From positions 67,270,001-67,334,000 of the forward strand of contig OX597814.1 in NCBI GenBank assembly GCA_951406725.2: a stretch of DNA of 64,000 bases. The letters run 5' to 3'. The stretch comes from Octopus vulgaris. Lineage: Eukaryota. Shown one piece after another: positions 20,763 through 61,954 of this stretch (position 1 is its first letter; each line of letters begins with the position of its first letter). The position numbers and the translations under genes are program-made. Below the pieces are notes generated by a model. The model was given only the letters and a program-made list of their open reading frames with translations, had not been told where the DNA came from and made no database searches.

Positions 20763-20840
20763 GGTTCAAGGGGAATATGATATCAGATGAGCTTGAGACT
20801 GAGGCTGAGAAAACAGAGAATTTAGAGCTGGAGACACCAG
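20763..20840 (+). CDS. Acidic repeat exon 1 (78 nt): GFKGNMISDELETEAEKTENLELETP
   Basis: tttatttctctAG| ... CCAG|GTATGA, phase 1/1, open. Confidence 0.8.
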
Positions 20841-20899
20841 GTATGAACTAAAAACAGACACACATACATACGTATGCATTTATGTATGTATTATATATA

Positions 20900-23760
20900 T
20901 ATCATTAATAAAAGTTAGGGAATATACTAATTTCAAGCCAACAGGGAAAAAATTCCATTTAGCACACTAAATCAAAGATACACGAAACGATATTATCTAT
21001 AATAACCACATAGAAATTAATTGAATAGATTATAATAATTATTCTAAAAATCACAAAACAAATCAAACATTATATTGACTACGCGCGTTTCATGACTAAA
21101 TATATAAATCGATAATTCGATTTGAAAATATATAGCCACTCTTCAGGTAAAAAAATAACATAAGATAAATGAAGATATTTTAATTAAACAATAAAGATAT
21201 AAATATATGTATGTCAACAGTAAATAATCTAATAAAATTTAACAATATTAATGTAAAGTAAATACATAACTTATTGAGGAAAACCAGTTAAATGAAATTT
21301 TAAACTTTAAACTATCAATCTAGCGTTGTAAAAAATCTATCTCGTTAAACGTGACGTAAGCAATAAATATACAATAAACATAAAGATATATGTATTTAAC
21401 GATAAAAATATAAATAAAAATAAACAAATAAACGTGACATAATATACCATTTACGGGGAAATAATTCTAAATTCTCAATGATTTAAAACTACATTATATG
21501 TAAAAAATATATATAATAAACTAAATGTCCATAAATTAATATATATTCTTCAATTTATTTTATTAATCCCTTGGTTTAATCTTATTCTAGTTATGTTCAT
21601 ACATTACATAACCTACAACTAATTTATACTCATTATACTGCTACATAATGTAACTACATAAATTAATAACATAAATCAGGGTATATATATTCACAAATTA
21701 TTTAAACTTACTATATAAATAATTCGACCTATATCTACATTTAATTTTCCTCTCATCTTGGTAATTAATCAGTTGTTTTTTAAATAGTAAAATCTCTATA
21801 AATTCCTTTGTACACAGTAAACAAAAATTATTACCCATTCGATAGGATTTAGCATTACAAATTATCTCCCATTTTAAATTATACTTAATTCCTTTAGATT
21901 TTAATTCCCATATATATTTGCTGAAGCCAGTAGAATTAATCAATGTTTCATTCTTAAATGAGTGCATATGTTGAGCTACCCTTAATTTAATTTTATTTGA
22001 CGTCGACTCCACGTAAATCGCGTTTATATTATAACTATTCCTATTAATATTATCCTCTATCAGAGTCACTACACATTTATATACTACATCAACCAAGTTA
22101 CATTTATTTTAAAATTTACATTTCGTAATATCTCTACATGTACAATTAATTAAATTCTGGTCATATGTATTGTTGGAATTAGTATGTAATTTTTTGATAT
22201 AAAATTATTCAGCTTAAAACTATTAAAAGATGAAATAATGTTACCAGCATTATTGGTAGTAGAATAACCAACTCCAAAATTATTACTAGAAAAATGTTAT
22301 TATATTTTTTATTATCTACAATGAATAATTCAATTAGTTCTAATATATCTTTAATAATGTTTGTTCAAATTTGAGCCCCATAAGGAATAATTAACTAAAT
22401 TTTGTTCTTATTGTTAACATTACTTTTATTAATTATATTATTGTATTTCTTATTATCATTAACCACATTAAATTTATTCTTATCTTTTACTCTTTTATTA
22501 TATTTATTTTTTGTATTATCATAATACCTATTATGAAAACCATAATTAACTGAACAAAACTTATCATAATTCTTAATATTAGGTTTATTATTATAAATAT
22601 CATAAGAATCATTTATATTATTATTTTTTATATTATTATTAACTCTACAATTATTAAGGAATTTAATACTTTTATTATATCCCACCTCCCTCAAGGCTTC
22701 ATTATAATAAGGTGCGTGTTTTTGGAAAATCTCAAAATTAGAAGAAAGGGCCGAAATTCTTTTTCCTATATTATCTATCAACGATTTTTTAATTGAGGGT
22801 AGGTGATTACTATTGGCATTTATATATCTAAGGTTTTCATTAATTTTATGGAATGGTTGGGTTTTCCCTGTTATTGAATTAAAATTAAAATCTAAATAAT
22901 TAACACCATACTTCTCTTTATCTATAATAATACCTAATCCATATCTTTAAAAAAAAGTTTCCTCTTATATATTTCTAGTGTTCTTATATATTTCTAGTGT
23001 TCTATTAGTTATTAATAAAAGGTCATCCCTATATAATCCACCCTCCAGATTTAATTTTTCTAATTGAAGTTCTGATAATAAGTAAATACCTACTAAATCA
23101 GTCACCTGGGCAGAATAGGGTGCCTCAAAGGTATATCAAAATAATCTCTAGTATCCTTCCTAGCTCACAATTTATTTTTATATCTAATCAACGATTTTCT
23201 AGCTGCTTTAACTGCCTTAACTTCATCATAAGTCATTCCAACCTTATTTATTGCATAAATTAGGGCCTTATTGAGTACTATCTCATTTATAGAAGAATAA
23301 TAATTATCTATATCTATTTGAATGAATTTATATTTATTTTTATCTTTAGTATTATTAAACCATTTTAAAGTATCATTAGTACCACTCCAAAGTTTTAGAT
23401 AGTTAAGTTCATTTACTCTATTAATATAATTATCTAAAATGATCTGACTTAATTTACCTAGATCTGTTTTACATGGACAAATAAGTCTAACTTTTGGGTG
23501 AGAATAAAAATTATTTTTGTGATCTTTTAAAGTAATTCTAGGGTGCATAGGTACATAAGGTTCAGTTTTATTGTCTAACTTATATTTCATCATGATTAAT
23601 TTGGAGACTTTATTTATATTATTAAGAGCATTTTCAGGAACAATTTTATATTTTTTATTTATTTCTTTTTCCAATAAATTATCATATAATTTAACATCCA
23701 GTTTATACCTGTTCCTAGTTTTATCTGATTGTACTATAATTCGGTCCATGCTTCTCATTT
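20900..23760 (-). mobile_element. Penelope-like element: RT and GIY-YIG remnants plus AT-rich 3' terminal repeat region
   Basis: DKTRN.Y, ITLKDHKNNFYSHPKVRLICP, FIQIDIDNYYSSI, LYRDD, VVYKC...YIWELK..CLLC. Frameshifted. Confidence 0.85.
21076..21150 (-). ncRNA. Hammerhead ribozyme motif in a Penelope terminal repeat
   Basis: Minus strand reads TTAC-CTGAAGA-GTGGCTA...TAGTCAT-GAAA-CGCGCG-TA-GTCA. Same strand as the Penelope ORF and downstream of it. Confidence 0.7.
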
Positions 23761-23959
23761 ATTTTATTTTTATAGATAAATTTCATCCGCTGACAAATGT
23801 TTCATTGACCAAGTACTGTTATTTGGATTTCTTTAGGTGGTGAGAAATAGAATGCGGGTCTCCACGTGTTGCTATTGTATTAGTAGCCTTGTCATCTTCC
23901 TTTAGAAATATGGCACTCTGGGTGGTGGTTGTTGTTTGCTAGTCTTAATTTTATGCAGA

Positions 23960-24318
23960 TCAATCTAGGATCAGATGGTAAACACACAGAACTACCGTTG
24001 GCTTACTGTGTCCCTAAAACATGTACCGAGAGTGATAAAAATCAAGAATCCAATGATATGATGTTTGGAGTGATCACTAGTGATGACGACGTTATGACTC
24101 CATCTTCCCACATGGCCTCACACTCAACATGGAGGCCTACATCAAGTATCTGGAGGAGGTAGTGCTGCCATGAGTCAAGAGGGTGGCTGCTGGAAGACCA
24201 TATGTCTGGCAACAGAACTCTGAACCATGCCACACAAGCAGGAGAACTTAGTCATGGCTATCAGACAATTTCTGCGACCACATCACCCCTAACATCTGGC
24301 CACATAACTCCCCAGACT
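23960..24318 (+). mobile_element. Tc1/mariner remnant homologous to 17560-17900
   Basis: Visible similarity (ATCACTAGTGATG..GTTATG, GGCTGCTGGAAGACCATATGT). Confidence 0.65.
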
Positions 24319-60024: not shown

Positions 60025-61523
60025 TATATATATATATATATATATATATATATATATATATAGATATATATATATATAAATATGTTATAATGTAATTATA
60101 TTATAATGTAAACCTTTTTGAACTCATAATATTCTGTGTGTGTTTGAATATACAGATACAATACCAATATCCCACTGAACGTTTTAATAATTCCTTCTGG
60201 AAACTATTTTCAACATGTCCTTGAGAATGTATATTTATGTTGTAATCTTTAGTGCCCAATATTTTAAGGAACTTGTTAAACTTTTTTATGTCCTTAACAT
60301 GTCCTTGTTACCAATATATGCAATGTAGCATTTTGTAACAACCAATAATTAACGCAACCAAACTTCTACATGTTACTTTTTACAATCTTTTCTCAAAGAA
60401 TGAAACCGGTAAAGTAAATAAACATCTTTTAAAATTGCATTTTCAAACCTCTTTCGTATATAATTCCACTCGTGCGGTACCCTACAACTCTACTTTGTTA
60501 TATATATATGCACACTCACACGTATCCACACACGCATACACACACATGTATATATTCAAATTTTGTGTTTGAAGCAGCTCGTTAATATACATCTTATGAA
60601 TATCATATACTTAATGTATATGTGTCGTTAAAGACTTGAAAGTTGCGGTATTTCGTCTAAGAGATCTACCTCTAAAAACCTAAGCTAGGCGAAACGAAAT
60701 CGCGCTGAAAATGAACGAGAGCGACAGAGCCGATATTTCGCGGTTATTTTCGCTCATCAGTGTCATATACTCATCTACTAGACGCGTTTCTGGGTCTTTA
60801 GCCTTCCTTTGTTGAAGATACTGAAAGGAGGTAAGATAGGGGAGATAATGAAGCCGTGCAAGCGTTACTACTGCTATATTTGTTCTGACCATGTGGTCTG
60901 CGAGCACAAATCAGCCACTGATATTGATTCTTCTACTAGTTGCTATCTCCTTAGAGAGGAAGCCTAAAGAACCAGAAACTCATCTAGAAGTCGAGGTTTA
61001 TGGGTGTGTAGACTGCAGATGACATCTTACTCGTCGAAACCTCACACACATATACATGTCTAAGATATGCATGTATGTAGGCTGGAAGTATGTATGCATA
61101 AATATGTGTGATGGTTGATTATATTACCTACCTGTATTCGCATTGTTTCTAAATATCCTGTTTTTTTTTCCAGTAGTGTGGTGTGGTTTAAATGTAAAAA
61201 AATATGCCTGCAATGCCTGAATTTGGATGTCATCAACAAAAAGTGTCTGAATTTGGCTCTCAATAAAATCTTTATAATTTTATTGAAATGTTTTCAATTT
61301 GTATTTGTAAGGTGCATGCTATGCGATCTCTTTGTTTCCAGGAAAATTATTGACAAGAATAAACAACAAGTTTGACGGACGTCAGACGATATATCTAAAT
61401 CCGTATATCAAATACCTTCTATGATTGTGAATGGTGTTTTCATTGCGACTTAATAGCATAAAAACTTTAAATATTTAACATTGAAATTTCATACAAAAGG
61501 TTTTCTCCTTTTCGTTTCTCTAG

Positions 61524-61601
61524 AATTCGAGGAGACTACATCAGCAGAAGAGTTAGAGTCTGTAGTCGAAGAGACAGAGAATCTAGAACTAGAGACACCA
61601 G
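61524..61601 (+). CDS. Acidic repeat exon 18 (78 nt): EFEETTSAEELESVVEETENLELETP
   Basis: tttctctAG|AATTC ... CCAG|GTATGA. Paralog of exon 16. Confidence 0.85.
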
Positions 61602-61876
61602 GTATGAATTATATACACGTACATACATACATGCATGGATACAAGCATGCATGCATACATACATACATACATACATACATACATACATGCACGCGCGTCA
61701 CAATGTCTATAAGAATTATTCAAATCTGTATTTCAGATGCGTTGTATGATTGTGTATGGGTTATGTATTATGTCCCAAATATTCAAATAACAAAAAAAAA
61801 AAGAGAAAAAGATAGCAAATTTTAATATTTAACATTAAAAGTTTATATAAAAGGTTTCCTATTACTATTTCTCTAG

Positions 61877-61954
61877 AATTCGAAGAGAATACGGTACAAG
61901 AAGAGTTGGAATCAGAGGCTGAAGAGACGGAGAATGTAGAGCTGGAGACTCCAG
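61877..61954 (+). CDS. Acidic repeat exon 19 (78 nt): EFEENTVQEELESEAEETENVELETP
   Basis: tttctctAG|AATTC ... CCAG|GTAATG. Shares the donor variant of exon 17. Confidence 0.85.

Follow-up and report, generated by a model that had tools for sequence, protein, structure and literature searches.

A large array of symmetric exons in Octopus vulgaris, a candidate gene for a secreted glutamate-rich polyanion

Acidic, disordered proteins such as OMM-64, Starmaker and AGARP are described, in the parts of the reports available to us, as controlling the growth of calcium carbonate or as collapsing on Ca2+ (PMC9496343, PMC12557392), and the available part of one of these reports gives their net charge per residue as -0.27, -0.23 and -0.3, respectively (PMC12557392). 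The growth of disordered proteins through tandem symmetric exons has also been described in general terms, in the excerpt accessible to us, for human genes (PMC3632108). Here we describe a gene from Octopus vulgaris that combines these two themes: an array of small phase-1 exons that occupies much of a 64,000-nucleotide stretch of contig OX597814.1 (assembly GCA_951406725.2; G000:C1:67270001-67334000, hereafter the window) and continues well beyond it. We examined the window together with 200 kb upstream and 400 kb downstream of it, positions outside 1-64,000 being window coordinates extended along the contig, and our genome-wide searches cover the 2.8-Gb genome. We find that the repeated modules of the array are coding exons under purifying selection.

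An initial annotation, made from the window sequence alone, had listed 19 such modules on the + strand between 20,763 and 61,954, and all 19 were recovered, each with AG before it, GT after it and phase 1/1 (Table 1). Its other counts also held: the 17 copies whose length is a multiple of three, when spliced in silico, give 1,302 nt, or 434 codons, with no stop, and the content of Asp plus Glu in each copy, put at about 30-55%, was measured at 0.31-0.54. Eleven modules are 78 nt long, four are 63 nt, two are 77 nt and there is one each of 75 and 117 nt, changes in length being nearly all multiples of three; the 434-residue join contains 47.3% Asp plus Glu (41.8% Glu) and 1.4% Lys plus Arg. CCAG stands at the 3' end of 15 of the 19 modules and AATT at the start of 18. 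Both 77-nt copies have the same sequence and fall within the same 1-kb duplication; each lacks one base at an A7 run, and we count them as a single event, either a skipped pseudo-exon or an assembly or consensus error. The flanking introns, called heavily diverged, are not unrelated to one another. Upstream of the acceptor the copies can be aligned over about 76 columns and are homologous, from which it follows that the duplicated unit is an intron end plus an exon, and the block at 33,556-34,582 recurs at 52,575-53,605 with 98.4% identity. Several module copies lie in recent block duplications of this kind, and the 19 modules are therefore not independent of one another. We also note fragments of the donor end of the module, possibly cryptic donors, at 31,680-31,899 and 46,638-46,656, duplicated within a 90-110-bp tandem repeat, and an inverted module fragment at 52,528-52,550 on the - strand.

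The module occurs at a single locus. Genome-wide matches at the DNA level (29 of 29) and at the protein level (35 of 35), both counts being lower bounds, fall within one 185-kb stretch, C1 67.30-67.48 Mb, and all are on the + strand except one, which lies in an inverted duplicate block; the module is thus not a transposable element or a dispersed repeat, an alternative that the initial annotation had raised. The analysis of selection rests on 19 distinct exons of 78 nt that lie from 20,763 to 106,888 (10 in the window and 9 downstream), with identical copies, exons of other lengths and the diverged 3' exons set aside. In the proposed frame the ratio of nonsynonymous to synonymous rates (omega) is about 0.5, and twice the log-likelihood difference from omega 1 is 13.9 under the F1x4 frequency model and 4.3 under F3x4, while in the two other sense frames omega is 1.5. 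Measured as tree length, change amounts to 2.03 at first, 1.56 at second and 3.71 at third codon positions and to 3.39 in the upstream flank; first and second positions are thus slower than the flank and third positions about as fast, in line with the proposal that the exons are constrained relative to their introns. Three neutral models were simulated 600 times each, and no run reached the observed third-position share (0.47 versus 0.34). Stops are found in none of the 19 exons, against 5.4-7.0 tips expected from neutral forward simulation on the same tree (P 0.003-0.018); the five other frames have 44, 22, 3, 38 and 1, and both AG and GT are kept in all 19 exons. We are highly confident that the modules belong to a coding gene.

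The codon-position bias, the avoidance of stops and the intact splice sites extend across old and young copies, and this speaks, together with length changes that nearly all preserve the frame (including an acceptor moved by 24 nt), against the array being a decaying or mostly skipped relic. Under such an account few exons would be used, the young copies would be passengers of block duplications and some of the copy number would be assembly error. It would accommodate the two out-of-frame copies, the two lost splice sites, the donor-only fragments, a 54-kb repeat whose copies suggest a false or very recent duplication and the absence of the window modules from the protein records found, and we consider it decidedly unlikely.

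The array does not end where the initial annotation had placed its limits: a diverged member of the family lies upstream of 20,763 (Table 1) and modules continue to about 232,000. The whole comprises some 46-48 phase-1 exons, from 8,196 in the window to about 168 kb beyond the window end, in a gene of about 240 kb that is mostly unannotated and in which all introns found are phase 1. The two-exon unit with which the window closes is repeated five times to 85,101 and acidic copies run on to 106,888. Beyond that point the copies are older, mostly 75-78 nt long, with 15-29% Asp plus Glu and more basic residues, whereas the young centre of the array has 40-52% Asp plus Glu. The last array exon found, of 36 nt at 231,927-231,962, ends in a phase-1 donor. 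When 47 exons are joined, with a repeated 54-kb block counted once, they give a chain of 1,143 residues with no stop, of which 36% are Glu and 4% Asp (40% acidic), with 2.5% Lys, 3.5% Val, 10% Thr, 14% Ser plus Thr and no Trp. It contains 13 S-x-E/D sites and four dibasic sites, the latter all within the last 150 residues, and its net charge is -403 over 1,122 residues (about -0.36 per residue), the part encoded in the window reaching -0.46 per residue. Two further 54-nt exon candidates, at 204,138 and 210,123, stand outside the 47-exon count. The predicted mature chain has two cysteines in all, encoded in the exons at 210,123-210,176 and 231,927-231,962, and a disulfide or dimer link is possible.

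The 54-kb block at 103,496-157,410 recurs at 157,401-222,298 with 99.5-99.98% identity and with one 9-kb part inverted. Over 34 kb the copies differ at 8 mismatches, with 31 gap openings, and over 10.6 kb they have no mismatch; because they differ mostly by gaps the repeat may be a false duplication; it is likely to be either false or very recent. Decayed module copies lie at 115,521 and 198,031, one lacking both AG and GT and the other GT, both being open and a multiple of three in length. In the module at 133,481-133,534 the original acceptor has apparently been lost and a new AG 24 nt downstream keeps the frame (54 nt). The Atlas model of an annotated fragment has a predicted local distance difference test score (pLDDT) of 0.36 and a predicted template modelling score (pTM) of 0.11, which supports the product as a disordered, domain-free polyanion. 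The broader proposal of the initial annotation, a lineage-restricted array of symmetric coding exons for such a protein, is borne out by the single locus, by the signal of selection and by this low pLDDT.

At the 5' end, a scan of the 29 kb before 20,700 for phase-1 exons richer in GC than their flanks gave four candidates, of which the exon at 15,214 and the 33-nt exon at 8,196 have the most GC contrast; the latter has a GC content of 0.52, against 0.32 in its flanks, and is bordered by tttcAG and GTAAGT. At -8,411 to -8,378 (G000:C1:67261589-67261622), 8.4 kb before the window, is an ATG exon that ends in a phase-1 donor and is preceded by what is probably a short intron in the 5' untranslated region. 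Joined in silico, the ATG exon and the 33-nt exon would give a signal peptide of 21 residues, with Lys at position 2, a 12-residue hydrophobic core, a hydropathy peak of 3.5 and Gly/Ala at -3/-1, to be cleaved before a Gln. Among 107 candidate pairs of first and second exons, taken from both strands over 664 kb, this pair is the one that passes our signal-peptide rule, and each of its exons is single-copy in the genome. We therefore think it probable, on the strength of this prediction, that the protein is secreted, and the extracellular and Ca2+-binding roles that had been suggested for it gain support. Another candidate for the second exon, at -1,982, was passed over for its low GC contrast and weak splice sites. 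We also note three tandem copies of a 5.9-kb element resembling a long interspersed nuclear element, 90-94% identical to one another, at -27,980 to -10,425, just upstream of the predicted ATG exon.

At the 3' end, the extension past 64,000 that the initial annotation had called for followed the array to about 232,000 and yielded neither a terminal exon nor a folded domain. Of 238 unmasked open frames of at least 38 residues between 232 and 324 kb, 234 have no Pfam match, three are pieces of transposase families and one is an EF-hand exon; no Ig, Fn3 or other folded domain of the array gene was found in these 238 frames, the scan excluding the introns inside the array. It is conceivable that the array forms a stalk that ends in a downstream membrane anchor or folded domain, for example by splicing into the EF-hand exon of a calmodulin-like gene, given that the last array exon ends in a phase-1 donor and that this one, of 144 nt at 322,111, is the first clear coding exon after it to carry a phase-1 acceptor. 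In-frame read-through from the array would thus be possible, though it is unsupported. The EF-hand exon belongs to a neo-calmodulin-like gene (L056:654-732, L056:8111-8254 and onward) that follows the last array exon at a distance of 83 kb, in the same orientation. The gene includes a phase-0 upstream exon of its own, and records from O. vulgaris, O. sinensis, O. bimaculoides and Argonauta annotate its product as a separate protein of 158-176 residues; a fusion with the array is absent from all five of the calmodulin-like records examined. The sole candidate for a transmembrane-like exon, at 288,354, was rejected, its sequence being antisense to a repeat that occurs three times in the region. 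We give a stalk of this kind little probability.

The initial annotation had also considered a spacer like the PEVK region of titin, and an intracellular entropic spring of the poly-E type, tuned by splicing, would match the octopus module in length (26 residues, against 26-28 in PPAK units) and in Glu content (42%, against about 45% in poly-E), as far as the available part of the source goes (PMC7691732). The octopus protein is, however, predicted to be secreted, its Lys and Val contents are low, it has no Lys/Val-rich PPAK units, no Ig or Fn3 match was found downstream and unrelated genes flank the locus. The predicted secretion and the lack of an Ig or other folded domain in the 238 downstream frames mean that a titin-like spacer is not supported, and we regard it as very improbable.

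Searches for relatives of the protein returned little beyond the locus itself. A full HMMER scan found two proteins, both from the array locus, an alignment search found one protein among 7,999 candidates and a search with the longer protein found no match among 7,996. The spliced-peptide search that had been proposed thus recovered two O. vulgaris fragments of the downstream exons and no other relative among the candidates scored. These fragments, CAI9715271.1 (238 residues) and CAI9715272.1 (113 residues), are predicted proteins that match downstream array exons at 100% and splice the downstream modules in the proposed phase; both are uncharacterised, lack a signal peptide, have out-of-frame ends and contain none of the 19 window modules, which were in no protein record found among the candidates searched. 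In the Atlas, feature matches were all below 0.8 and structure matches had template modelling scores below 0.4, with no family that fits, and neither the two fragments nor the two exons searched had a Pfam match above the cut-off. Neither the module motif nor the accessions of the fragments were found in the literature text searched, supplements lying outside its scope. The passages searched of a preprint on the argonaut eggcase held nothing relevant, and no acidic matrix protein described for octopus statoliths turned up in literature searches of listings and passages.

The explanation that we favour overall, at somewhat short of an even chance, is that the array is one octopus gene for a secreted, disordered, Glu-rich polyanion of more than 1,100 residues that binds Ca2+ weakly at many sites and controls calcium carbonate or a matrix. 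The gene would have grown by tandem duplication of a unit made of the intron flank and a 78-nt phase-1 exon, single exons first and blocks later, leaving a young and acidic centre and older 3' copies that diverged, in part becoming basic, while mostly keeping the 78-nt length; given the symmetry of the exons, skipping of individual exons is possible. Divalent cations would collapse the mature chain, otherwise an extended coil, in the way measured for OMM-64, Starmaker and AGARP, whose behaviour is the source of this model, and by the same analogy the Ca2+ binding of the octopus chain is likely to be weak and spread over many sites. Outside the cell it would control calcium carbonate or a hydrated matrix, most likely in a space where mineral forms, for instance the statocyst or the shell-remnant sac; the octopus has both a statolith and a stylet. 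A role in mineral control, again by analogy, is one we put forward tentatively. We think it quite unlikely that the protein is, more specifically, an octopod-specific matrix protein of statolith or stylet with more than 1,100 residues and about 400 negative charges, a molluscan parallel to vertebrate acidic SCPP proteins and Starmaker that arose independently from phase-1 exons and whose length and charge are set by skipping of about 45 interchangeable exons and by continuing changes in copy number, with EF-hands from the adjacent calmodulin-like gene in some transcripts.

Nearly as likely as the mineral role is that the polyanion serves a non-mineral secretion, in the swelling or charge balance of mucus, in egg or spermatophore coats or as a granin-like filler of granules, although this too is possible rather than probable. 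The signal peptide and the composition fit such a role equally well, Glu dominates over Asp, the 10% Thr could carry O-glycans, and the fast turnover of copies and the lack of annotated orthologues are typical of gland and reproductive proteins. For a classical mucin the content of Ser plus Thr is too low, and a peptide precursor is excluded because the dibasic sites are few and confined to the end of the chain.

Several points weigh against a secreted calcium-binding polyanion as the product of the array. No feature ties the protein to mineral, Glu being far in excess of Asp and S-x-E/D sites few. No orthologue from other octopods appeared among the roughly 8,000 word-sharing candidates or cluster representatives scored, although the collection searched does contain octopod copies of the neighbouring calmodulin-like gene. 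The last exon was not found in the downstream search, which gave about 50 weak acceptors from which none could be chosen, and a membrane anchor or folded end may lie beyond the last exon found. Among the copies are two that do not keep the frame and two others in which a splice site has been lost. Selection is modest, with a strength that varies by frequency model; omega in the antisense frame with shared codon positions equals that of the sense frame, as expected; the codon models took no account of gene conversion; and the selection could be past and not current, since the signal gives no date. The exon junctions, including the join that makes the signal peptide, are inferred. In repeat-dominated contigs from four runs that we presume to be RNA, covering 15,050-34,490, none of the 15 joints listed, out of 58, joined two listed exon ends; one run lost nine joints at repeats, holes in the contigs are uninformative, and we count this result neither way on expression. 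In a comparison of sequencing runs by shared words, 17 runs presumed to be RNA had 0.08-0.15 of the words, and three runs of unspecified kind, under three organism labels, had about half. The signal peptide itself was called by a hand rule and not by SignalP, with approximate splice-site weights, and the rule was written after the candidate had been seen, so that the evidence is strong but not independent.

Table 1. Exons of the array within the window.
Feature	Coordinates	Strand	Remarks
33-nt phase-1/1 micro-exon, predicted second half of signal peptide	8196..8228	+	composition scan; inferred
66-nt phase-1/1 exon, diverged module family member, first exon of predicted mature chain	15214..15279	+	profile E 7.9e-6; single copy
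Module exon, 78 nt	20763..20840	+	
Module exon, 75 nt	26925..26999	+	
Module exon, 78 nt	27380..27457	+	
Module exon, 78 nt	29981..30058	+	
Module exon, 78 nt	30540..30617	+	
Module exon, 63 nt	31628..31690	+	
Module exon, 63 nt	32192..32254	+	
77-nt copy	34107..34183	+	out of frame as assembled
Module exon, 78 nt	34400..34477	+	
Module exon, 63 nt	46495..46557	+	
Module exon, 63 nt	46979..47041	+	
Module exon, 78 nt	49123..49200	+	
Module exon, 117 nt	51174..51290	+	internal in-frame 24-27-nt tandem repeat
77-nt copy	53126..53202	+	identical to 34,107-34,183, same 1-kb duplication
Module exon, 78 nt	53419..53496	+	identical to 34,400-34,477
Module exon, 78 nt	54823..54900	+	
Module exon, 78 nt	55014..55091	+	
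Module exon, 78 nt	61524..61601	+	first of two-exon unit repeated five times to 85,101
Module exon, 78 nt	61877..61954	+	second exon of two-exon unit repeated to 85,101

The 12-kb intron at 34,478-46,494 includes a stretch, at 38-44 kb, that is strongly AT-skewed, has open frames on the minus strand and is probably a retroelement. Upstream of the gene, an intronless open reading frame at -55,240 to -54,800 on the + strand presumably represents a FUNDC1-like gene, to judge from its translation, and exons at -116,000 to -95,700 on the - strand resemble what we take, in the same way, to be subunit 1 of the COP9 signalosome (CSN1).

The array keeps a record of its own history, with old and diverged copies at its ends and young acidic ones in the middle, and it offers a clean case of a disordered secreted protein, as we predict it to be, growing by duplication of symmetric exons. 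It also restores a large gene that annotation had broken into two uncharacterised fragments and puts forward a specific candidate for an octopus acidic matrix protein. Like OMM-64 of trout, Starmaker of zebrafish and AGARP of coral, the octopus chain is long, free of domains, strongly acidic and secreted (predicted or known). It differs from them in being nearly pure in Glu among its acidic residues, in having one repeat per exon and in being about twice their length if all exons are used, and it is more highly charged, at -0.36 per residue against the -0.23 to -0.3 given in the available part of the source (PMC12557392). No sequence homology to the three was found, our searches having returned only the two octopus fragments. 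With vertebrate acidic SCPP genes, as described in the part of the account available to us, the octopus gene shares a signal peptide (predicted in the octopus), a chain rich in Asp and Glu without a folded domain and local exon duplication; SCPP chains also carry S-x-E sites, SCPP introns are mostly phase 0 and the SCPP genes derive from SPARC-L (PMC9122587). The octopus chain, itself 40% acidic, has 13 S-x-E/D in 1,143 residues, the octopus introns found are all phase 1 and the gene is molluscan. SCPP genes are thus its nearest architectural parallel, and the octopus gene is an analogue and not a member. The neighbours of the locus (the calmodulin-like gene and those we take to be FUNDC1-like and CSN1-like) are likewise not in keeping with a linkage to SPARC-L. 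We read the octopus gene as a new orphan of a known architectural and functional kind.

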